Source: Escherichia coli
GTDB lineage: Bacteria > Pseudomonadota > Gammaproteobacteria > Enterobacterales > Enterobacteriaceae
Assembly: GCF_046105845.1 (NCBI RefSeq)
Contig: NZ_CP151004.1
Length of the DNA stretch: 64,000 bases
Reading direction: 5' to 3' (one strand)
In this document: positions 1,375-17,277 of the stretch, in pieces
Layout: each line of letters begins with the position of its first letter
Numbering within the stretch: the first letter of the stretch is position 1
Translations under genes and position numbers: made by a program
The notes under the pieces: model-generated
What the model saw: the letters and a program-made list of their open reading frames with translations, nothing else
Databases searched by the model: none
Told to the model about the DNA's origin: nothing

Positions 1375-3615
1375 ATGAACAAGAAGATTCATTCCCTGGC
1401 CTTGTTGGTCAATCTGGGGATTTATGGGGTAGCACAGGCACAAGAGCCAATCGATACTCCTGTTTCACATGACGATACCATTGTCGTTACCGCCGCCGAG
1501 CAGAACTTGCAGGCACCTGGCGTTTCGACCATCACCGCAGATGAAATCCGCAAAAACCCGGTTGCCCGCGATGTGTCGGAGATCATCCGTACCATGCCAG
1601 GCGTTAACCTGACCGGTAACTCCACCAGTGGTCAGCGTGGTAATAACCGCCAGATTGATATTCGCGGCATGGGTCCGGAAAACACGCTGATTTTGATTGA
1701 CGGCAAGCCGGTAAGCAGCCGTAACTCGGTGCGTCAGGGCTGGCGTGGCGAGCGCGATACCCGTGGTGATACCTCCTGGGTGCCACCTGAAATGATTGAA
1801 CGTATTGAAGTTCTGCGTGGTCCGGCAGCTGCGCGTTATGGCAACGGCGCGGCGGGCGGCGTGGTTAACATCATTACCAAAAAAGGCAGTGGTGAGTGGC
1901 ACGGCTCGTGGGACGCATATTTCAATGCGCCAGAACATAAAGAGGAAGGTGCCACCAAACGCACTAACTTTAGCCTCACCGGTCCGCTGGGCGACGAATT
2001 CAGCTTCCGCTTGTATGGCAACCTCGACAAAACTCAGGCTGACGCGTGGGATATCAACCAGGGCCATCAGTCCGCGCGTGCCGGAACGTATGCCACGACG
2101 TTACCAGCCGGGCGCGAAGGGGTAATTAACAAAGATATTAATGGCGTGGTGCGCTGGGACTTCGCGCCTCTGCAATCACTCGAACTGGAAGCGGGCTACA
2201 GCCGCCAGGGTAACCTGTATGCGGGCGACACCCAGAACACCAACTCTGACTCCTATACCCGCTCGAAATATGGCGATGAAACCAACCGTCTGTATCGCCA
2301 GAACTACTCGCTGACATGGAACGGCGGCTGGGATAACGGCGTGACCACCAGCAACTGGGTGCAGTACGAACACACCCGTAACTCGCGTATTCCGGAAGGT
2401 CTGGCGGGCGGTACCGAAGGGAAATTTAACGAAAAAGCGACACAGGATTTCGTCGATATCGATCTCGATGACGTGATGCTGCACAGCGAAGTTAACCTGC
2501 CGATTGATTTCCTCGTTAACCAGACGCTGACGCTGGGTACGGAGTGGAATCAGCAGCGGATGAAGGATTTAAGTTCCAACACCCAGGCGCTGACCGGAAC
2601 GAATACCGGTGGCGCTATTGATGGCGTGAGTGCCACCGACCGTAGCCCGTATTCAAAAGCAGAAATTTTCTCGCTGTTTGCCGAAAACAACATGGAGCTG
2701 ACTGACAGCACCATCGTAACGCCGGGGCTGCGTTTCGATCATCACAGTATTGTCGGCAATAACTGGAGCCCGGCGCTGAACATATCGCAAGGTTTAGGCG
2801 ATGACTTCACGCTGAAAATGGGCATTGCCCGTGCTTATAAAGCGCCGAGTCTGTACCAGACTAACCCGAACTACATTCTCTACAGTAAAGGTCAGGGCTG
2901 CTATGCCAGCGCGGGCGGCTGCTATCTGCAAGGTAACGATGACCTGAAAGCGGAAACCAGCATCAACAAAGAGATTGGTCTGGAGTTCAAACGCGACGGC
3001 TGGCTGGCGGGCGTCACCTGGTTCCGTAACGATTATCGCAATAAGATTGAAGCGGGCTATGTGGCTGTAGGGCAAAACGCAGTCGGCACCGATCTCTATC
3101 AGTGGGATAACGTGCCGAAAGCGGTGGTTGAAGGTCTGGAAGGATCGTTAAACGTACCGGTTAGCGAAACGGTGATGTGGACTAATAACATCACTTATAT
3201 GCTGAAGAGTGAAAACAAAACCACGGGCGACCGTTTGTCGATCATCCCGGAGTATACGTTGAACTCAACGCTGAGCTGGCAGGCACGAGAAGATTTGTCG
3301 ATGCAAACGACCTTCACCTGGTACGGTAAGCAGCAGCCGAAGAAGTACAACTATAAAGGTCAGCCAGCGGTTGGCCCGGAAACCAAAGAAATCAGTCCTT
3401 ACAGCATTGTGGGTCTGAGCGCGACCTGGGATGTGACGAAGAATGTCAGTCTGACCGGCGGCGTGGACAACCTGTTCGACAAACGTTTGTGGCGTGCGGG
3501 TAATGCCCAGACCACGGGCGATCTGGCAGGGGCCAACTATATCGCCGGTGCCGGGGCGTATACCTATAACGAGCCGGGACGTACGTGGTATATGAGCGTA
3601 AACACCCACTTCTGA
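1375..3615 (+). CDS. fepA: TonB-dependent outer membrane ferric enterobactin receptor FepA (746 aa)
   Basis: ORF 1315..3615; product starts MNKKIHSLALLVNLGIYGVAQA (signal peptide), has a TonB box-like DDTIVVTA and C-terminal ...YMSVNTHF; start placed at the internal ATG 1375. Confidence 0.93.
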   Translation: MNKKIHSLALLVNLGIYGVAQAQEPIDTPVSHDDTIVVTAAEQNLQAPGVSTITADEIRKNPVARDVSEIIRTMPGVNLTGNSTSGQRGNNRQIDIRGMGPENTLILIDGKPVSSRNSVRQGWRGERDTRGDTSWVPPEMIERIEVLRGPAAARYGNGAAGGVVNIITKKGSGEWHGSWDAYFNAPEHKEEGATKRTNFSLTGPLGDEFSFRLYGNLDKTQADAWDINQGHQSARAGTYATTLPAGREGVINKDINGVVRWDFAPLQSLELEAGYSRQGNLYAGDTQNTNSDSYTRSKYGDETNRLYRQNYSLTWNGGWDNGVTTSNWVQYEHTRNSRIPEGLAGGTEGKFNEKATQDFVDIDLDDVMLHSEVNLPIDFLVNQTLTLGTEWNQQRMKDLSSNTQALTGTNTGGAIDGVSATDRSPYSKAEIFSLFAENNMELTDSTIVTPGLRFDHHSIVGNNWSPALNISQGLGDDFTLKMGIARAYKAPSLYQTNPNYILYSKGQGCYASAGGCYLQGNDDLKAETSINKEIGLEFKRDGWLAGVTWFRNDYRNKIEAGYVAVGQNAVGTDLYQWDNVPKAVVEGLEGSLNVPVSETVMWTNNITYMLKSENKTTGDRLSIIPEYTLNSTLSWQAREDLSMQTTFTWYGKQQPKKYNYKGQPAVGPETKEISPYSIVGLSATWDVTKNVSLTGGVDNLFDKRLWRAGNAQTTGDLAGANYIAGAGAYTYNEPGRTWYMSVNTHF

Positions 3616-3654
3616 TGCTAACGTCAGATTGTTGACAAAGTGCGCGTCGTTCAT

Positions 3655-3752
3655 GCCGGATGCGGCGTGAACGCCTTATCAGGCCTACAAAAATCTTGTC
3701 AATTCAATATATTGCAGGACCACGTAGGCCTGATAAGCGTAGCGCATCAGGC
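3655..3752. repeat. BIME: pair of inverted REP elements
   Basis: gccggatgcggcgtgaacgccttatcaggcctac ... gtaggcctgataagcgtagcgcatcaggc, the typical REP palindromic unit in the fepA-entD intergenic region. Confidence 0.8.
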
Positions 3753-3780
3753 AGTTTTGCGTTTGTCATCATTCTCTAAT

Positions 3781-4410
3781 ATGGTCGACATGAAAACTAC
3801 GCATACCTCCCTCCCCTTTGCAGGACATACGCTGCATTTTGTTGAGTTTGATCCGGCGAGTTTTCGCGAGCAGGATTTACTCTGGCTGCCACACTACGCA
3901 CAACTGCAACACGCTGGACGTAAACGTAAAACAGAGCATTTAGCTGGACGGATCGCTGCTGTTTATGCCTTGCGGGAATATGGCTATAAATATGTGCCCG
4001 CTATCGGCGAGCTACGCCAACCTGTGTGGCCTGCGGAGGTATACGGCAGTATTAGCCACTGCGGGACTACGGCATTAGCCGTGGTATCTCGTCAACCGAT
4101 TGGCATTGATATCGAAGAGATTTTCTCTGTACAAATCGCAAGAGAATTGACAGACAACATTATTACACCAGCAGAACACGAGCGACTCGCAGAATGCGGT
4201 TTAACCTTTTCTCTGGCGCTGACACTGGCATTTTCCGCCAAAGAGAGCGCATTTAAGGCAAGCAAGATACAGGCCGCTCAAGGTTTTCTGGATTATCAGA
4301 TAATTAGCTGGAATAAACAGCGGATCATCATTCGACTAGAGGATGAGCAGTTTGCTGTGCACTGGCATATAAAAGAAAAGATAGTCATAACGCTGTGCCA
4401 ACACGATTAA
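3781..4410 (+). CDS. entD: Enterobactin synthase 4'-phosphopantetheinyl transferase EntD (209 aa)
   Basis: Within ORF 3640..4410; start placed at ATG 3781 (MVDMKTTHTSLPFAGHTLHF...), giving 209 aa; immediately downstream of fepA as in E. coli. Confidence 0.85.
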   Translation: MVDMKTTHTSLPFAGHTLHFVEFDPASFREQDLLWLPHYAQLQHAGRKRKTEHLAGRIAAVYALREYGYKYVPAIGELRQPVWPAEVYGSISHCGTTALAVVSRQPIGIDIEEIFSVQIARELTDNIITPAEHERLAECGLTFSLALTLAFSAKESAFKASKIQAAQGFLDYQIISWNKQRIIIRLEDEQFAVHWHIKEKIVITLCQHD

Positions 4411-4531
4411 TTGACAACTTCTGGTACGATTCGCCCGCAGCCATTGCTGACCGCGGGCGAAAGTGTAAAGCAGGTGCCTTACCATCCTGACCTGACAACC
4501 GGATATGCGGGGATTGCTCCCAACACAACGG

Positions 4532-4684
4532 CTACTTCTTCGGTTCGTAAGCGAGAACAGCCTTAAACTCAATATTACGTTCCTTCACCGTAAACTCACA
4601 CAGCGAGTCTCCGACCAGAAGCGTAAATCCCAGCACCGTTAAACACAGCACTATGACTGCCACAAGGGCATATTTCGTCAGCAT
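4532..4684 (-). CDS. hokE: Hok family host-killing membrane toxin (50 aa), copy 1
   Basis: [50 protein letters not shown]; small hydrophobic Hok-type peptide; start placed at the internal ATG of ORF 4532..4720. Confidence 0.85.
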
Positions 4685-4784
4685 GTTTATATTGCCTCCA
4701 TGCGAAGAAGGGACTACCATCCAAATTGTTCAGGTTTGGGTAGGTAGCCCCAGGGTTGATAGAAATATCGTCCTGGGGCTTCAT
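4596..4784 (-). CDS. mokE: mok (modulation of killing) reading frame overlapping hok, copy 1
   Basis: 62-aa ORF in a different frame overlapping the hok 5' region, the canonical hok/mok arrangement; conserved in copy 2. Confidence 0.55.
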
Positions 4785-5035
4785 CTTTCCAGACCTCAGA
4801 GTTAACCTGAAACCGGAAAGCTTCAGGCACCCGCCGTTATCTTACCCTTCCTCAGCAAAATAGCTGTTTATTTATACAGTGAATCCTGTTTCGGACTTCT
4901 GTTGGCAAAACTGATCATTGCCCTTAAAACGACATCGCCCGCAGCCATTGCTGACCGCGGGCGAAAGTGTAAAACAGGTGCCTTACCACCCTGACCTGAC
5001 AACCGGATATGCGGGGATTACTCCCCGCACAACGG

Positions 5036-5188
5036 CTACTTCTTCGGTTCGTAAGCGAGAACAGCCTTAAACTCAATATTACGTTCCTTCACCGTAAACT
5101 CACACAGCGAGTCTCCGACCAGAAGCGTAAATCCCAGCACCGTCAAACACAGCACTATGACTGCCGCAAGGGCATATTTCGTCAGCAT
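5036..5188 (-). CDS. hokE: Hok family toxin (50 aa), copy 2 (V8A relative to copy 1)
   Basis: [50 protein letters not shown]. Confidence 0.85.
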
Positions 5189-5288
5189 GTTTATATTGCC
5201 TCCATGCGAAGAAGGGACTACCATCCAAATTGTTTGGGTTTGGAGTGGCAGCCCCAGGGTTGATAGAAATATCGTCCTGGGGCTTCAT
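5100..5288 (-). CDS. mokE: mok reading frame overlapping hok, copy 2
   Basis: 62-aa ORF with 3 substitutions relative to the copy 1 mok; same overlap geometry. Confidence 0.55.
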
Positions 5289-5622
5289 CTTTCCAGACCT
5301 CAGAGTTAACCTGAAACCGGAAAGCTTCAGGCACCCGCCGTTATCTTACCCTTCTTCAGCAAAATGGCTGTTTATTTATACAGTGAGTCCTGTTTCGGAC
5401 TTCTCAATCCTCATTTGATCAACTGAAGCTGAACCCGTTTTTTTTCTGCATGCCTCAATCGTCAAAATTCTTCGCCACCAGTCCGCACTGCCATAACTTG
5501 TCATATTGCAAAATGTAGCCAATTTGCTTCAGTCACCATCATCAAAAAAAGAAACATTCCAGAACTTCCGCATCTCGCCCAGTCGCTCCCACTTCTATAC
5601 TGAATAGAAAACGCCAACATAA

Positions 5623-6750
<1,128 letters not shown>

Positions 6751-6815
6751 GCCGGGAATTGCCTTACAGAAGAATATCCCTGACAATGGTGTTTTAACTT
6801 ACATTTAACAATGTT

Positions 6816-7064
6816 ATGAAACACCCTTTAGAAACCTTGACCACCGCAGCAGGCATTTTGCTGATGGCTTTCCTTTCTTGCCTGCTGCTGCCCGCCCCCG
6901 CACTGGGGCTGACGCTGGCACAAAAACTGGTGACCATGTTCCATCTGATGGATCTTAGCCAGCTTTACACTTTATTGTTTTGTCTGTGGTTTTTAGTGCT
7001 GGGCGCTATTGAGTATTTTGTTCTGCGCTTTATCTGGCGACGCTGGTTCTCGCTGGCGGATTAA
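6816..7064 (+). CDS. ybdJ: Small inner membrane protein YbdJ (82 aa)
   Basis: ORF 6816..7064, hydrophobic 82-aa product; synteny. Confidence 0.8.
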
Positions 7065-7128
7065 ACGTCGATTATCGCCGAACTTCGCGGCATACTTTGC
7101 TTATTCTCCTTCGCCTAAAGGAACGTTT

Positions 7129-7497
7129 ATGGATAAGCAATCACTGCACGAAACGGCGAAACGCCTGGCCCTTGAGTTACCCTTTGTCGAGCTTTGCTGG
7201 CCTTTTGGCCCGGAGTTCGATGTTTTTAAAATTGGCGGCAAGATTTTTATGCTGTCGTCGGAGCTGCGCGGCGTCCCCTTTATCAATCTGAAGTCCGATC
7301 CACAAAAATCCCTGTTAAATCAGCAAATATACCCGAGCATCAAGCCAGGGTATCACATGAATAAAAAGCACTGGATTTCAGTGTATCCCGGCGAGGAAAT
7401 CTCCGAAGCGTTACTTCGCGATCTGATCAACGATTCGTGGAATCTGGTGGTTGATGGTCTGGCTAAACGCGATCAAAAAAGAGTGCGTCCAGGCTAA
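7129..7497 (+). CDS. ybdF: YbdF (MmcQ/YjbR-like DNA-binding fold protein), 122 aa
   Basis: Start placed at ATG 7129 ([19 protein letters not shown]...) inside the longer ORF 7009..7497, which overlaps ybdJ. Confidence 0.8.
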
Positions 7498-7590
7498 AGC
7501 GGGAATCTATAGCGCATTTTTCTCGCTTACCATTTTTCGTTGAACCTTGTAATCTGCTGGCACGCAAAATTACTTTCACATGGAGTCTTT

Positions 7591-8244
7591 ATGGATATCA
7601 TTTCTGTCGCCTTAAAGCGTCATTCCACTAAGGCATTTGATGCCAGCAAAAAACTTACCCCGAAACAGGCCGAGCAGATCAAAACTCTCCTGCAATACAG
7701 CCCATCCAGTACCAACTCCCAGCCGTGGCATTTTATTGTTGCCAGCACGGAAGAAGGTAAAGCGCGTGTTGCCAAATCCGCTGCCGGTAATTACGTGTTC
7801 AACGAGCGTAAAATGCTTGATGCCTCGCACGTTGTGGTGTTCTGTGCAAAAACCGCGATGGACGATGCCTGGCTGAAGCTGGTTGTTGACCAGGAAGATG
7901 CCGATGGCCGCTTTGCCACGCCAGAAGCGAAAGCCGCGAACGATAAAGGTCGCAAGTTCTTCGCTGATATGCACCGTAAAGATCTGCATGATGATGCGCA
8001 GTGGATGGCAAAACAGGTTTATCTCAACGTCGGTAACTTCCTGCTCGGCGTGGCGGCTCTGGGTCTGGACGCGGTACCCATCGAAGGTTTTGACGCCGCC
8101 ATCCTCGATGAAGAATTTGATCTGAAAGAGAAAGGCTACACCAGTCTGGTGGTTGTTCCGGTGGGTCATCACAGCGTTGAAGATTTTAACGCTACGCTGC
8201 CGAAATCTCGTCTGCCGCAAAACATTACCTTAACCGAAGTGTAA
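7591..8244 (+). CDS. nfsB: Oxygen-insensitive NAD(P)H nitroreductase NfsB (217 aa)
   Basis: [23 protein letters not shown]...; start at ATG 7591 within ORF 7540..8244. Confidence 0.93.
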
Positions 8245-8303
8245 TTCTCCCTTGCCGGGCATCTGCCCGGCTATTTCCCCTCAGATTCTCCTGATTTGCA
8301 TAA

Positions 8304-9599
<1,296 letters not shown>

Positions 9600-9601
9600 T
9601 T

Positions 9602-9645
9602 AAAAAAACCGCTCTCATCGAATGGATGAGAGCGGACATCGTTTT
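9602..9645. terminator. Bidirectional rho-independent terminator between convergent ybdG and pheP
   Basis: Hairpin ccgctctcatc-gaatg-gatgagagcgg flanked by an A-tract and a T-tract. Confidence 0.7.
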
Positions 9646-9666
9646 GTCGGATGTAGCGTGAATGCC

Positions 9667-11043
9667 TTATTTCCGACGCAGCGTTTTAAACGCTACAAAC
9701 AGGAATACAATCCACACTGGCAGCAGAATCGCTGACAAGCGCATATCATCCATCGTGCACATCAGCAGCAAAATCATGCCGAGGAAGGCGATGCAGAGAT
9801 AGTTGCCGAACGGATAGAGCAGCGCCTTAAACTGTGTTTCACGTCCCTGACGTCGCATCGCCGCGCGAAAACGCAGATGCGCCAGGCAGATCATAATCCA
9901 GTTCAACAGCAGCGTTGCTACCACCAGCGCCATCAGCAGACCAAACGCTTTTTGCGGCAGCAGATAGTTGATTAACACCACCAGCGAAGTGATGGCTCCG
10001 GAAAGCATCAGCGAGTTAATCGGCACGCCGCGACGGCTGACGCGAGTCAAAAACTTCGGTGCATTACCCTGCACAGAAAGGCCAAACAGCATCCGACTGT
10101 TAGAGTAAACCCCGCTGTTATACACCGATAATGATGCTACCAGAATGACGAAGTTCAGCGCAGAAGCTACCACGTTGCTGTCGAGATTATGGAAAATCAT
10201 CACAAACGGGCTACTGTTGGATTTCACTTCCACCCACGGATAGAGTGCCAGTAAAACCACCAGTGAACCGATATAAAACAGCAGGATTCGATACACCACC
10301 TGATTCACTGCTTTCGGGATGCTTTTTTCCGGATCGCGCGCTTCAGCCGCAGTAATCCCAATCAGCTCCAGACCGCCGAAGGAGAACATAATTACCGCCA
10401 GCGACAAAATCAGCCCATTCCAGCCGGTGGCGAAGAAACCACCGTAGCGCCAGAGGTTGTCGATACTGGCTTTCTCGCCGCCGTGACCAGAAAACAGCAG
10501 CCACAGGCCAAAGCCGATCATACCGATGATTGCCAGCACTTTAATCAGCGCAAACCAGAACTCGGTTTCGCCATATAAGCGCACGTTCACCAGGTTAACG
10601 GCGTTGATGATAATAAAGAAGGCGGCAGCCCAAATCCACGTTGGAACATCCGGGAACCAGTACTGCATATAGATGCCCGCAGCGGTCAGCTCTGCCATTC
10701 CCACCAGCACGAACATTACCCAGTAGTTCCAGCCAGAGAGGAAGCCCGCAAACGGTCCCCAGTATTTATAGGCAAAGTGGGCAAATGAACCGGATACCGG
10801 CTCTTCGACCACCATCTCGCCGAGCTGGCGCATAATCAGGAAAGCGATGATCCCGGCGACGCCGTAGCCCAGCAATACAGCCGGACCCGCCATCTGAATC
10901 GCCGGGCCAATGCCAAGAAACAGACCAGTACCAATTGCGCCACCCAGCGCAATCAGTTGAATATGACGGTTATGTAATCCGCGATGAAGCGTCGGCTCTT
11001 GATTCGACGCAGTATCTTCCGATACGGTTGACGCGTTTTTCAC
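9667..11043 (-). CDS. pheP: Phenylalanine-specific APC family permease PheP (458 aa, GTG start)
   Basis: Product ...KNASTVSEDTASNQEPTLHRGL...; start placed at GTG (plus-strand cac 11041-11043) to match the known MKNAS... N-terminus. Confidence 0.9.
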   Translation of the reverse strand: MKNASTVSEDTASNQEPTLHRGLHNRHIQLIALGGAIGTGLFLGIGPAIQMAGPAVLLGYGVAGIIAFLIMRQLGEMVVEEPVSGSFAHFAYKYWGPFAGFLSGWNYWVMFVLVGMAELTAAGIYMQYWFPDVPTWIWAAAFFIIINAVNLVNVRLYGETEFWFALIKVLAIIGMIGFGLWLLFSGHGGEKASIDNLWRYGGFFATGWNGLILSLAVIMFSFGGLELIGITAAEARDPEKSIPKAVNQVVYRILLFYIGSLVVLLALYPWVEVKSNSSPFVMIFHNLDSNVVASALNFVILVASLSVYNSGVYSNSRMLFGLSVQGNAPKFLTRVSRRGVPINSLMLSGAITSLVVLINYLLPQKAFGLLMALVVATLLLNWIMICLAHLRFRAAMRRQGRETQFKALLYPFGNYLCIAFLGMILLLMCTMDDMRLSAILLPVWIVFLFVAFKTLRRK

Positions 11044-11144
11044 GCCTTTCCCCTGTGTGTCTTTTTTGTTGAGGGGCACCTTTTAACATTTAGTGCCCAT
11101 CGTCGCAAGACACAATCCACACGGTTAAACCGGGTATCCTGCTT

Positions 11145-14100
11145 TTATTTCCGTACCCGATGTCGGTGCAGCCACATCAGCTTATACGCCGCCGGGATAA
11201 TAAACAGCGACAGCAAAGGCGCGGTGATCATGCCGCCAATCATCGGCGCGGCAATCCGGCTCATCACCTCTGATCCTGCCCCCGTTCCCCACAGAATCGG
11301 CAGCAGACCAGCGATAATCACCGCCACCGTCATCGCTTTCGGGCGCACGCGCAGGACAGCGCCGTGATACAACGCCTCATCCAGCTTCTGCTCGCTGAAT
11401 GTTTGCGGATTATTCAACGACGGCTCGGCCTCTATGGCGTGACGTAAATACATCAGCATCACCACGCCAAATTCGGCGGCGACTCCGGCGAGGGCAATAA
11501 AACCGGTGCCCGTCGCCACGGAAAGATGAAAGCCCATCCACCACAGCAACCAGATGCCGCCCACCAGCGCAAACGGTACGCTGCTGATAATCAGCAACGC
11601 TTCGCCCACCCGACGGAACGCCAGATACAACAGCACGAAGATGATCATCAACGTCATCGGCACCATGAGTTTCAGCTTATGGTTGGCGCGCTCCAGTAGC
11701 TCGAACTGCCCGGAGAATGCCACGCTGGTGCCCGGTTTTAACTGCACTTTTTCAGCTATCGCTTTTTGCAAATCGTGAACCACCGACACCATGTCACGAT
11801 CGCGGGCATCGATATAAATCCAGCTCGTCGGGCGCGCATTCTCGGTTTTCAGCATCGACGGTCCGGTAGAGACTTTAACGTCGGCCACGTCTGCCAGGGT
11901 GATTTGCTGCTTCATCGGCGTCAGGATCGGCAACTGGCGCAGCGCCTGCGGACTATCGCGCCAGCTTTGCGGATAACGCAGATTAATTGGATAACGGGCA
12001 ATCCCTTCCACCGTTTCGCCAACCATCGCCCCGCCCACCGCAGATGTCACAAACAACTGCACATCCGCCACCGTCATACCGTAACGCGCGGCTTTTTCAC
12101 GGTTAATCTCAACGTTGATATAGCGCCCACCTTCCAGACGTTCAGCAAGGGCAGAAGCCACGCCTGGCACCGTTCGTGCCACTTCTTCAATTTGCTCCGC
12201 CATCGCGTCGATATCCGCCAGCACAGTGCCGGAAACTTTAATGCCGATGGGGCTTTTAATGCCAGTCGAGAGCATATCGATACGGTTACGAATTGGCGGC
12301 ACCCACAGATTCGCCAGCCCCGGCAGCCGCACGGTGTTATCCAGTTCCTCGATGATTTTGTCCATCGTCATGCCTGGCCGCCACTGATCTTGTGGCTTAA
12401 GCTGGATGGTCGTTTCTACCATCTCCAGCGGAGCAGAATCGGTGGCGGTTTCCGCTTTCCCGGTTTTGCCAAATACCCGCGCCACTTCAGGTACGCTCAT
12501 AATCAGCTTGTCGGTTTTTTGCAGCATACTCGCCGCCTCTGCTGCGGAAATCCCCGGCAGCGTCGATGGCATATATAACAAGTCGCCTTCATTAATCTGC
12601 GGTAAAAATTCCCCGCCAACTTTATTGAGCGGCCAGAGAATCGTCAGCACCGAAAGCGCTGCCACCAGCAGCGTGGTTTTCGGCCAGTGCAGTACTTTCA
12701 GCAACAGCGGATGATAAACACGAATCAAGAAGCGATTGAGCGGGTTACTGCTTTCTGGCGGAATTTTGCCACGGATCCAGTAACCCATCAGGATAGGGAT
12801 CACTACGATCGCCAGCAGCGCCGCGCCCGCCATCGCATAGGTTTTGGTGAACGCCAACGGGCCAAACAGACGCCCTTCCTGCCCTTCCAGGGTGAAGATC
12901 GGGATAAACGACAGTGTGATAATCAGCAGACTGATAAACAGCGCCGGACCCACTTCAACAGACGCATCGGTAATCACCTGCCAGCGCGTTTTATTATCCA
13001 GCGTGGCGTCAGGATGCTGGTGCTGCCACTCTTCCAGCCGTTTATGCGCATTCTCGATCATGACGATAGCGGCATCGACCATCGCCCCGACGGCAATCGC
13101 AATACCGCCCAGCGACATAATATTGGCGTTCAGTCCCTGAAAGTGCATGACAATAAAAGCAATACACAACCCCAGCGGCAACGAAATAATCGCCACCAGC
13201 GCCGAGCGCACATGCCAGAGAAACAGCGCACAGACTACCGCCACCACAATAAACTCTTCCAGCAACTTGCCGCTGAGGTTGTCGATGGCGCGGTCAATGA
13301 GCTGGCTGCGATCGTATGTTGTAACTATCTCCACGCCTTCCGGCAGACTGCTTTTCAGCGTTTCCAGTTTGTCTTTCACGGCGGCGATCACTTCTCGGGC
13401 GTTTTTGCCGGAGCGCAGGATCACCACCCCGCCCGCCACTTCGCCTTCGCCGTTCAGTTCGGCAATGCCCCGGCGCATCTCCGGGCCAATCTGGACCTTC
13501 GCAACATCGCGCAGATAAACGGGCACGCCATTTTCACTGGCTTTTAAAACGATGTGATTAAAGTCGTCGAGCGTTTGCAGATAGCCGCTGGCGCGCACCA
13601 TATATTCCGCTTCCGCCAGTTCGATCGACGAACCGCCCGCTTCCTGGTTTGAAGCATCCAGCGCGCTTTTTACTTCGGCGAGACTGATACCATATTGCGC
13701 CAGGCGCTGGGGATCGATAACCACCTGATACTCTTTCACCACGCCGCCCACCGACGCCACTTCCGCAACGTCAGGGATGGTTTTTAGCTCATATTTGAGA
13801 AACCAATCCTGCAATGAGCGTAAATCGGCCAGATCGTGCTTACCGCTGCGATCCACCAGTGCATATTCATAGATCCAGCCAACACCCGTGGCATCTGGTC
13901 CCAGCTCGGCGCTGACTCCCGCAGGCAGCTTACCCTGTACCTGGTTGAGGTACTCCAGCACCCGCGAACGCGCCCAGTACGGATCGGTACCATCTTCGAA
14001 AATGACATACACATAAGAGTCGCCAAACTGCGAGAAACCGCGCACAGTCTTCGCGCCAGGCACCGACAACATGGTGGTGGTTAGCGGATAAGTCACCTGA

Positions 14101-14288
14101 TTTTCAACGATTTGCGGTGCCTGACCGGGATAGCTGGTTTTAATAATCACCTGCACATCGGAGAGATCCGGCAGCGCATCCACTGGCGTATTAATGATGG
14201 TCCAGGTGCCCCAGATACTCAGAAACAACGCGCCCATCAGCACCAGAAAACGGTTCGCCACCGAGCGACGAATAATCCATTCAATCAT
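11145..14288 (-). CDS. cusA: RND copper/silver efflux inner membrane pump CusA (1047 aa)
   Basis: ORF 11145..14288, HME-RND transporter; last gene of cusCFBA. Confidence 0.95.
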
Positions 14289-14299
14289 TGGTTATTCCC

Positions 14300-15523
14300 T
14301 CAATGCGCATGGGTAGCACTTTCAGAGCGCATCCGCTCCAGTGCGCCAGAAATATTGGCTTCGGAATCAATCAGGAACAGGCCGCTGGAAACCACCTTTT
14401 CACCTTCCGCCAGACCAGAGCGTAACGCGGTGACGCCTTGCGATGCCTGGAAAACGGCAACGCGTTTCGGTACAAAGCGTCCGTCGGCATCAACGGTAAT
14501 CACCCGCTGTTCACTGCCGGTATCAATCAGCGCCTGTGACGGAATGAGCAGCATCGGTTCGCTGGTGGTATTGAGTTGCAACCAGGCGTTCATGCCCGGT
14601 TTTAGCGACTCGTCGGCGTTGTCGACTTCCAGACGCAGCTGCAGCGTGCGGGTCGCGGCATCCACGCCGGGTAGCAGCGTCCATTTGCGAATGGTGAGTG
14701 TTTTATCAGGTCGCGCCGGAACGGTGAGCGTAAACTGCGAGGCATCTTTCACCAGCCAGGCGATGGACTCCGGGATCGCTGCAGTGACCCACACCGGGTC
14801 CATACCCTGAATTTTCGCGACCACATTATCTTTGGCGATATTCATTCCCGCGCGCAGATCAAACGCGGTGATCACGCCATCAATGGGCGCTTTGAGCGTA
14901 AAGCGAGTCTGTATTTTTTGCGTGGCGATCAGGCGGCGAATATCCGCCTCCGGCATTCCCGCCAGTCGCAGTCGCTCAAGAATGCCTTCAGTCTGGGTCG
15001 CCGTACCGCCGGTTTCGCGCAGCAGTAAATACTCACTCTGCGCTTCCACCCAGTCGGGAATGGTCAGGTCGAGAAGCGGTGTGCCCTTTTGTACTTTATC
15101 GCCCACCGTAAGCGGATACACCTTGTCGATAAATCCGGCAGCGCGAGCCTGCACAATGGCATACTGATACTCGTTGTAACTGACATTCGCCGGGAAACTC
15201 TGGGCAAAAGTCAGCGGCCCGCGCGTGACGGTAGCCGTTTTCACCCCCAGATTCTGCGTCTGGGTCGGGTCAATGCGTACACCAGACGCAGAACTCTCTT
15301 CATCGGCATATTTCGGCACCAGATCCATATCCATAAACGGCGATTTACCTGGTTTATCGAACCGCGTATTGGGATACATCGGGTCGTACCAGAATAAGAT
15401 TTTACGTTCTGCGGTCGGCGTTTTTTCTGCGGGCGGTTCAGCCTTTGCAAACCAGGTAAAACCTGCCGCAGAAATAATACCGCCCGCGATCATGCTGCCG
15501 ATAATAAGCGCGATTTTTTTCAT
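14300..15523 (-). CDS. cusB: Copper/silver efflux membrane fusion (periplasmic adaptor) protein CusB (407 aa)
   Basis: ORF 14300..15523; operon position between cusF and cusA. Confidence 0.93.
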   Translation of the reverse strand: MKKIALIIGSMIAGGIISAAGFTWFAKAEPPAEKTPTAERKILFWYDPMYPNTRFDKPGKSPFMDMDLVPKYADEESSASGVRIDPTQTQNLGVKTATVTRGPLTFAQSFPANVSYNEYQYAIVQARAAGFIDKVYPLTVGDKVQKGTPLLDLTIPDWVEAQSEYLLLRETGGTATQTEGILERLRLAGMPEADIRRLIATQKIQTRFTLKAPIDGVITAFDLRAGMNIAKDNVVAKIQGMDPVWVTAAIPESIAWLVKDASQFTLTVPARPDKTLTIRKWTLLPGVDAATRTLQLRLEVDNADESLKPGMNAWLQLNTTSEPMLLIPSQALIDTGSEQRVITVDADGRFVPKRVAVFQASQGVTALRSGLAEGEKVVSSGLFLIDSEANISGALERMRSESATHAH

Positions 15524-15538
15524 CTCATTAAACCTGGG

Positions 15539-15871
15539 TTACTGGCTGACTTTAATATCCTGTAATAAAGAAAGGTTGCCCTGCTGGACAAAATTAAACG
15601 CCACTTTGTCGCCGGTTTTAATTTCACTCATTTTCGTCTGCGGGGTGATGGTAAAGCGCATGGTCATCTCCGGCCAGTTCACGGCTACAATCGGATCGTG
15701 ATGGATGGTGATTTTTTTGCTTTCCAGATCAACACCTTTTACCACCCCAGTGGCGCTAATGACCTGTGGTTTTGCTTCGCTCGTGGTTTCATGATGATGT
15801 TCGTTAGCCTGGGCATTAAAGCCAATAATGGTAAACAGACTGAACATTGCGACTTGCAGTGCTTTTTTCAT
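15539..15871 (-). CDS. cusF: Periplasmic copper/silver chaperone CusF (110 aa)
   Basis: ORF 15539..15871; signal peptide plus small periplasmic domain; His-rich N-terminal segment. Confidence 0.93.
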   Translation of the reverse strand: MKKALQVAMFSLFTIIGFNAQANEHHHETTSEAKPQVISATGVVKGVDLESKKITIHHDPIVAVNWPEMTMRFTITPQTKMSEIKTGDKVAFNFVQQGNLSLLQDIKVSQ

Positions 15872-15894
15872 TTATTCTCTCCTGGAGTTAAAAA

Positions 15895-17277
15895 TTATTG
15901 CTGCCAACCGCCACCAAGTGCGGCATATAAAGAAATTTCGTTAACCTGACGGGCATAATTCAGGTCAAGTAAGGTTTGTCGGGTTGCAAATAAAGAACGC
16001 TCGGCATCCAGCACTTCCAGATAACTTACCGCGCCGTGCTGATATAATGCCCGCGCCCGTTGCAAAGTAATTTGCAGCGACGCCAGATAACGCTGCTGGG
16101 CGCTGATTTGATCGTTCAGGCTTTGACGTAATGCCAGCGCATCTGCCACTTCTTTAAAGGCGTTCTGGATTTTCTGTTCATAATTCACTACCGACTGCTG
16201 CTGGCGAATTTCGGCGATATCCAGATTGGCCTGGTTGCGTCCGGCATTAAAAATGGGGATCTCAATTTTCGGAATAAAATTCCACATCCCGCTGCTGGCG
16301 TTAAATAATGACGACAGATCGCTGCTGGCGGTTGATATTCCGCTGGTCAGGCTTATAGATGGGAAAAATGCCGCGCGTGCGGCCCCAATATTGGCATTAG
16401 CCGCCATTAACGCGTGTTCAGCTTCCATAATATCCGGGCGCTGCAATAAGATTTGCGACGACAAGCCCGCCGGTAATTTAACGCTTTGCAGGCTGTCGCT
16501 GTTTACTGTCTGCGCTTGCGGCAGCTTGCCGTAGCTTCCCAATAACAGTTGCAATGCATTATTCGCCTGCGCCAGTTCCCCCTGACGTTTAGCGATGTCA
16601 CTGCGGGTACTTTCTATCACCCCGCGAGCCTGTTCCAGCGCCAGAACATTGCTGCTACCGGTCAACAGTTGTTTTTCGACAAACGCATATGACTGCTGAT
16701 AATTACGCAGCGTTTCTTCGGCGATTTGCAATTGCGCATACGCCAGCTGCTGATTGAAATAGCTTTGCGCGACATTAGAAACCAGCAGAATATGCACCGC
16801 GCGCTGGGCTTCCTCCGTGGCTAAATAATTTTGGCGCTCGGCTTCGCTCATGTTCTTTAAGCGACCGAAAAAATCGAGATCAAAGCTGGCGTTAAGGCCA
16901 GTCGAGAACTCCCGCGTCGTGGCTGAATCGCCTTTAAGATTGCCGCTCCAGCTGCCGCTGCCCTCGCCATTGAGCTGTGGGTAGCGGTCGGTATCGGTCA
17001 GACGATATTGCGCCCGCGCTTCCTGCACTTTCAGCGTCGCCATGCGCAAATCCCGGTTATTCACCAGCGCCTCGCTAATCAGCGTCTTCACCTGATTATC
17101 AACAAAAAAGGTGCGCCAGCCCGCGTTCTGGTAGTTATCTGCTGCGTTAACCAGGCCGTTCTGGCTGAGTGAGAACTGCTGCGGCACGGGCATTGCCGGA
17201 CGCTGATAATCCGGTGCCAGTGAACAACCGGTTAGCGCAAGGGCCACACAAAATGGCAGAAGTTTACAAGGAGACAT
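15895..17277 (-). CDS. cusC: Outer membrane factor CusC (lipoprotein, TolC-like)
   Basis: MSPCKLLPFCVALALTGCSLAPDYQRP... with lipobox LTGC; first gene of cusCFBA. Confidence 0.93.
   Translation of the reverse strand: MSPCKLLPFCVALALTGCSLAPDYQRPAMPVPQQFSLSQNGLVNAADNYQNAGWRTFFVDNQVKTLISEALVNNRDLRMATLKVQEARAQYRLTDTDRYPQLNGEGSGSWSGNLKGDSATTREFSTGLNASFDLDFFGRLKNMSEAERQNYLATEEAQRAVHILLVSNVAQSYFNQQLAYAQLQIAEETLRNYQQSYAFVEKQLLTGSSNVLALEQARGVIESTRSDIAKRQGELAQANNALQLLLGSYGKLPQAQTVNSDSLQSVKLPAGLSSQILLQRPDIMEAEHALMAANANIGAARAAFFPSISLTSGISTASSDLSSLFNASSGMWNFIPKIEIPIFNAGRNQANLDIAEIRQQQSVVNYEQKIQNAFKEVADALALRQSLNDQISAQQRYLASLQITLQRARALYQHGAVSYLEVLDAERSLFATRQTLLDLNYARQVNEISLYAALGGGWQQ

Follow-up and report, generated by a model that had tools for sequence, protein, structure and literature searches.

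Among the known systems closest to the locus analysed here is hok/sok of plasmid R1, in which the hok mRNA is closed by pairing between its tac and fbi elements, as part of a mechanism summarised in PMC9841398. Related loci are found on bacterial chromosomes. According to Pedersen & Gerdes 1999, as cited in PMC2654758 and PMC7232551, the hok loci of Escherichia coli K-12 are disrupted by IS elements, point mutation or rearrangement. The same authors, as relayed by a 2026 preprint on Hok (bioRxiv 10.1101/2025.08.07.668861), are credited with the statement that IS-free chromosomal hok loci of other strains do not bring about post-segregational killing. The HokE peptide is toxic when expressed, and tandem hok ‘islets’ arise by local duplication (bioRxiv 10.1101/2025.08.07.668861). 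Duplicated, IS-free hokE has been described in the adherent-invasive strain AIEC NRG857c, where the copies are termed hok-2.1 and hok-2.2 (PMC7232551), and has been noted in E. coli W (PMC3032704). IS186 itself, a member of the IS4 family, inserts with high specificity at the sequence GGGG(N6/N7)CCCC (Lee et al. 2016, PMC5009759).

In the window, by which is meant the whole 64-kb stretch of DNA analysed, the gene order is fepA (to 3615, plus strand), entD, two hok-type units on the minus strand, and ybdK. It is judged, with a probability of about 0.9, that this is an undisrupted wild-type chromosomal hokE type I toxin-antitoxin locus, lying between entD and ybdK and made up of two hok/sok units of 504 bp in tandem. 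The units are defined by a direct repeat with a period of 504 bp, which starts at 4431 and again at 4935, and by alignment the homologous stretches are 4431-4900 and 4935-5404. The original prediction, that entD ends at 4410 and that the first hok unit begins about 20 bp further on, proved exact, as the TAA stop codon of entD occupies 4408-4410 and the repeat runs from 4431. The identity of EntD is borne out by its Pfam domains, 4PPT_N (67 bits) and ACPS (62 bits). The anatomy of the locus was established directly in this analysis, as were the absence of IS186, the exact insertion point in K-12 and the distribution of the alleles across genomes. The features are as follows.

3790-4410, plus strand: entD (4'-phosphopantetheinyl transferase), 206 aa; from the open reading frame (ORF) list and the entD annotation of syntenic genomes.
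4411-4430, no strand: entD-hok spacer of 20 bp, without IS186; from the sequence, the K-12 alignment running through unbroken.
4431-4900, minus strand: hok/sok unit 1, entD-proximal and complete; direct repeat with unit 2, Rfam RF01794.
4431-4460, minus strand: terminator-like 3' terminal hairpin of unit 1; inverted repeat, 14-bp stem in the minimum-energy fold.
4472-4479, minus strand: fbi-like element of unit 1, AGGCACCU in the mRNA; pairs with the mRNA 5' end in the predicted fold.
4509-4522, no strand: unit 1 counterpart of the IS186 target, GGGGATTGCTCCCA, one base short of GGGG-N6-CCCC; MG1655 alignment and motif scan.
4532-4684, minus strand: hok ORF of unit 1, 50 aa, V8 allele; translation and hokE annotation in related genomes.
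4596-4784, minus strand: mok-like overlapping ORF of unit 1, 62 aa, in a frame other than that of hok; ORF list and translation, assigned by position only.
4728-4788, plus strand: Sok-like antisense RNA of unit 1; blastn with MG1655 sokE, 4746-4788 at 97.7% and its 5' part at 4728-4739.
4825-4832, minus strand: 5' end of the unit 1 hok mRNA, tac-like GGGUGCCU; Rfam model start at 4832 and pairing with the fbi-like element in the predicted fold.
4901-4934, no strand: linker of 34 bp between units 1 and 2; alignment.
4935-5404, minus strand: hok/sok unit 2, ybdK-proximal and complete; direct repeat, Rfam RF01794.
4935-4964, minus strand: terminator hairpin of unit 2; terminator-like site at 4964-4935.
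4976-4983, minus strand: fbi-like element of unit 2; predicted 5'-3' closure.
5013-5026, no strand: perfect IS186 target motif GGGGATTACTCCCC, unoccupied; the sole GGGG(N6/N7)CCCC in the 64-kb window by motif scan.
5036-5188, minus strand: hok ORF of unit 2, 50 aa, identical to K-12 HokE; translation against MG1655 hokE.
5100-5288, minus strand: mok-like overlapping ORF of unit 2, 62 aa, intact; ORF list and translation, assigned by position only.
5232-5292, plus strand: Sok-like antisense RNA of unit 2; blastn with MG1655 sokE, 5236-5292 at 98.2%.
5329-5336, minus strand: 5' end of the unit 2 mRNA; Rfam match ending at 5336 and 5'-3' closure in the predicted fold.
5632-6750, plus strand: ybdK, the opposite flank of the hokE locus; ORF list and annotation of syntenic genomes.

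Both units are recognised by the Rfam sok model (RF01794), at 4676-4832 with 84.1 bits and at 5180-5336 with 80.3 bits, against a gathering score of 59. The two toxin ORFs match the Pfam family HOK_GEF (PF01848) with 34 bits (4535-4684) and 32.1 bits (5039-5188), the cut-off being 22, and the Hok peptide of unit 1 differs from that of unit 2 and from K-12 HokE by the single change A8V. Pfam returned no match for the mok-like ORF of unit 1. Weak matches to the Rfam family mir-1990 at 4732-4796 and 5234-5302 were set aside as chance, scoring 21 bits against a gathering score of 63; they reflect the Sok hairpin. A simple promoter scan of the locus found no strong sigma-70 consensus promoter, and the hok and sok promoters were therefore left unassigned.

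For folding, the full-length mRNAs were presumed to run on the minus strand from 4832 to 4425 and from 5336 to 4925. The folds are markedly more stable than those of shuffled controls, with z-scores of -6.9 for unit 1 and -6.4 for unit 2, and an 8-bp closure between GGGUGCCU and AGGCACCU is predicted for both units in the minimum-energy as well as the centroid structures. This predicted pairing of the mRNA ends would mirror the tac/fbi closure of the R1 hok mRNA. By analogy with the R1 paradigm, we infer a regulatory mechanism in which the full-length hok mRNA would be inert through its 5'-3' pairing; slow trimming of the 3' end would then allow it to refold and become translatable, whilst Sok would pair with the mok translation start region and lead to decay of the mRNA. 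When the unit 2 mRNA was folded in 3'-truncated form, the canonical tac/ucb rearrangement was not clearly reproduced.

The equivalent region of K-12 MG1655 has the order ybdK, sokE, hokE, IS186B (insL2), entD, fepA, with IS186B at NC_000913.3 608007-609351. The original prediction correctly has an IS186 between hokE and entD in K-12; the element does not, however, correspond to the spacer at 4411-4431 where its absence had been placed, but to a point about 100 bp further in. The IS186 proper of MG1655 is 1,339 bp long, has perfect 23-bp terminal repeats and is flanked by a 10-bp direct duplication, GGATTACTCC. Once the element and one copy of the duplication are removed, MG1655 is colinear with the window. 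Insertion took place within the hok transcription unit, 11-21 nt beyond the stop codon of hok, in what is the 3' UTR. Situated after this stop codon and before the fbi-like element, the K-12 IS186 cuts the toxin ORF off from the 3' fold-back (fbi) element and the terminator. Studies of hokE in K-12 are accordingly studies of an IS-disrupted allele. The empty counterparts of the K-12 site in the window are 4511-4520 in unit 1 (GGATTGCTCC) and 5015-5024 in unit 2 (GGATTACTCC, identical to K-12).

Searches for any trace of the element in the window gave uniformly negative results. The IS186 terminal repeat CATAAGCGCTAACTTAAGGGTTG, which does occur at the homologous site in MG1655 and in O104:H4, has no match in the 64-kb window with up to three mismatches allowed. 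Comparison of the window with the whole MG1655 IS186B by blastn and with the transposase InsL by tblastn yielded chance-level matches only (E of 0.25 or more). Alignment of the window to K-12 minus the IS has no gap at the insertion site, and there is no target-site duplication or footprint at either site, with GGATTGCTCC (4511-4520) and GGATTACTCC (5015-5024) each present as a single copy. The absence of a transposase ORF between entD and hok, remarked upon in the original prediction, thus holds for IS186 repeats, DNA and transposase across all 64 kb, and the alignment with MG1655 at the entD-hokE junction contains no IS186 remnant. The description of the hok locus as uninterrupted likewise stands as far as IS186 is concerned, with the correction that it comprises two tandem units, against a single one in K-12.

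Other differences from K-12 were seen, both in the locus and beyond it. Relative to both window units, K-12 sokE lacks one nucleotide in the loop of the Sok hairpin (at about 4770 and 5274), a deletion that also falls within the mok-like ORF, and has a T-to-A change close by. The flank from ybdK to cusA (5632-17000; 11.4 kb) shares about 97.5% identity with K-12, and among 5,426 complete E. coli genomes none is more than 98.4% identical to it. The source lineage is not represented among these genomes and could be Shigella or a divergent lineage of E. coli. The cryptic prophage DLP12 is absent from the window: at about 26774-26823 (argU) the equivalent of K-12 position 586,054 joins that of 564,801 directly. 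Towards the far end of the window, a 124-bp stretch at 61771-61893 matches the region between fepA and entD of K-12 with 87% similarity and is probably a REP-type repeat like that at about 3620-3760.

The distribution of hokE alleles was surveyed in the 5,426 complete E. coli genomes with a coverage cut-off of 80%. The collection is biased towards laboratory K-12 derivatives and clinical clones, and the counts are to be read as indicative rather than as population frequencies: 2,898 genomes are uninterrupted from the 3' end of entD across the K-12 insertion point, 1,717 have the K-12-type junction between the entD flank and IS186, 284 have IS186 at the K-12 site in reverse orientation, and 2,388 have the unit 1/unit 2 junction that marks two tandem units (query window:4840-4900-5000). 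Overall, IS186-bearing hokE alleles number about 2,000 of the 5,426; insertion at this hairpin with a 10-bp duplication is found in K-12 and in roughly one third of sequenced E. coli. In the 2011 outbreak strain O104:H4 2011C-3493, IS186 is present in both units (2240-3577 and 4091-5429 of the extracted locus); the two copies point in opposite directions, each flanked by a 10-bp duplication of its own, GGATTGCTCC. Taken together, the K-12-type, reverse-orientation and O104:H4 two-unit insertions amount to no fewer than three separate entries of IS186 into the hokE hairpin, with both orientations and both units represented.

The two-copy IS-free arrangement is annotated in O158:H23, O157:H7 and many other strains. 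An IS-free allele with a single unit is found in WCHEC035148, which is identical to K-12 minus the IS at 558 of 563 positions. The bodies of single units are not all of one kind, that of UTI89 being of the unit 1 type and those of K-12 and WCHEC035148 of the unit 2 type. This suggests that single-unit alleles arose more than once, by different unequal crossovers from a two-unit ancestor. Recombination between a pair of IS186 elements, each in its own unit as in O104:H4, was considered as the origin of the K-12 single unit and rejected; it is unnecessary given the IS-free allele of WCHEC035148, and the O104:H4 copies are inverted relative to each other.

Some further rearrangements were observed around the units. 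Strain 4/1-1 (NZ_CP023844.1 609424-620372) and similar genomes carry, between entD and unit 1, an island of about 11 kb whose ten genes for sugar utilisation include a transketolase, a regulator, an FGGY kinase, a ribose-type ABC transporter and two SDR oxidoreductases; the island is absent from the window, and in 4/1-1 the likeness to the hok side of the window ends at 4430/4431. Another IS route is seen in WP3-W18-ESBL-07, where IS150 lies in the upstream, promoter-side part of unit 2 (4352-5721 of the extracted locus).

Outgroups were sought by scanning species-representative genomes with a degenerate pattern for the HokE N-terminus, which returned six loci. Two tandem IS-free units are present in E. 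whittamii, Escherichia SCPM-O-B-8794 and Escherichia sp. MOD1-EC7003, and one IS-free unit in Escherichia sp. E1V33. IS186 is therefore absent from the hok locus in all four of these non-coli Escherichia genomes. The units are 94-97% conserved across Escherichia species. They lie beside fepA-entD in E. whittamii, SCPM-O-B-8794 and E1V33, and no fepA-entD match was found beside those of MOD1-EC7003. The remaining loci are from Klebsiella spallanzanii (1683-2549, tandem) and Klebsiella indica (2492-2838; both in coordinates of the extracted locus), whose hokE-like units are about 77% identical and have the same 3' hairpin. In E. whittamii, unit 2 and ybdK are separated by about 780 bp (approximately 3666-4440), most of which is unmatched to the 227-bp intergenic region of the window.

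With the uninterrupted state in the majority of genomes, IS-free outgroups, the WCHEC035148 allele and at least three entries of IS186, we infer by parsimony, on the basis of four outgroup genomes, that the IS-free two-unit state is most likely ancestral and that K-12, with one unit and IS186, is derived. The suggestion in the original prediction that the locus is possibly ancestral is to this extent supported. If so, K-12 represents a derived state at hokE, and the intact duplicated locus would be the state of most wild E. coli and of sister Escherichia species.

The site of insertion offers an explanation for its repeated use. The 10 bp at 5015-5024 are the same sequence as the duplication flanking the MG1655 IS186, and the GGGG-N6-CCCC sequence around them forms a hairpin in the mRNA that follows the hok stop codon and precedes the fbi-like element. 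This hairpin, GCGGGGAG(T/C)AATCCCCGC, is kept in all outgroup homologues compared, Klebsiella included. The 3' UTR of the hok mRNA therefore has a conserved element, the GGGG-N6-CCCC hairpin, that happens to fit the target of IS186, and this match accounts for the recurrent insertion of IS186 here. In the literature examined, no statement was found that places the IS186 site in a hairpin conserved in the hok 3' UTR and matching the IS186 motif.

Unit 1 of the window departs from this pattern. At 4522-4523, within the hairpin at 4507-4526, it has AA on the plus strand where all others have CG. The two substitutions disrupt the GGGG-N6-CCCC motif and make the 3' UTR hairpin weaker; elsewhere this hairpin does not vary, in E. 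coli, other Escherichia species and the Klebsiella homologues alike. They are private to the window among the sequences compared, the best full-length match to 4490-4550 among complete E. coli genomes being 96.7%, and they were not found described in the literature examined. It is tentatively proposed, as an idea that falls somewhat short of an even chance, that the hairpin serves as a built-in landing pad for IS186 through which E. coli lineages, independently of one another, repeatedly cut hok off from its fold-back element, and that unit 1 may have escaped by means of its two private substitutions. Were this true, IS186 insertion would constitute a recurrent, possibly selected, route to disarming the hokE toxin.

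The intact state of the window locus could also be secondary, if an IS186 like that of K-12 had once been present and was later removed, whether through precise excision or through recombination with an allele free of the element. Alleles bearing the element are common, as the figure of about 2,000 in 5,426 indicates, and E. coli frequently exchanges alleles by recombination; moreover, the hokE region is mosaic, with unit bodies that differ between single-unit strains. Precise excision of IS186 would leave an identical empty site. Excision is, however, very rare, with a single case, counting any IS, among 857 IS events (PMC5009759), and neither IS186 site in the window has a footprint or an extra duplication. 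All four non-coli Escherichia loci are IS-free, and the private substitutions of unit 1, together with a flank no more than 98.4% identical to that of any complete E. coli genome, indicate a separate lineage rather than a recent import. Secondary loss is accordingly regarded as very improbable, and it is highly likely that IS186 never entered hokE in the lineage of the window, or left no trace there, and that the locus is intact.

An intact hokE sequence does not prove activity, and it might be argued that the two units are decaying remnants, free of IS elements but silenced by point changes, for example in the promoters or in the hairpin of unit 1, in which case the term ‘uninterrupted’ would be functionally meaningless. 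The failure of the promoter scan to find a consensus promoter could be read in this way, as could the two private substitutions in the unit 1 hairpin and the published tests in which IS-free chromosomal hok loci were without post-segregational killing. On the other hand, both Hok ORFs, the mok-like ORFs, the Sok homologues and the predicted 5'-3' closures are all intact, and the units are 94-97% conserved across Escherichia species; the HokE peptide is, in addition, toxic on expression. Decay of this kind is considered rather unlikely, though a good deal less so than secondary loss of IS186, and the reading of the locus as an undisrupted wild-type hokE is retained.

Comparison with K-12 MG1655 hokE/sokE (b4415/b4835) reveals a shared position between entD and ybdK, a unit 2 Hok that equals K-12 HokE, a Sok homologue at 98%, and 3' UTR sequence flanking the K-12 IS that is also present in the window. 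The difference is that K-12 has one unit and a 1,339-bp IS186, whereas the window has two units and no IS. With hokE of NRG857c and E. coli W the window shares two tandem copies about 504 bp apart and the lack of an IS; the differences are allelic only, with unit 1 of the window carrying its private double substitution in the 3' hairpin. IS-free duplicated hokE is thus an ordinary strain polymorphism that has already been described. The added value of the present analysis is modest, and lies in the exact anatomy of the locus and in placing the K-12 IS186 within a hairpin that is conserved in the hok 3' UTR and fits the IS186 motif.

With hok/sok of plasmid R1, the window locus has in common a Hok/Gef toxin, an overlapping mok-type ORF, a Sok-type antisense RNA (RF01794) and a predicted mRNA closure of the tac/fbi type. 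The plasmid system, however, brings about post-segregational killing, whilst the window locus is chromosomal and tandemly duplicated, and killing or plasmid stabilisation is reported to be absent for other chromosomal hok loci. As for the IS186 hot spots of Lee et al. 2016 (PMC5009759), the site that is occupied in K-12 and empty in the window is likewise a perfect GGGG-N6-CCCC at which insertion has recurred in both orientations; it differs in that the motif here is an RNA hairpin conserved in the 3' UTR of hok.
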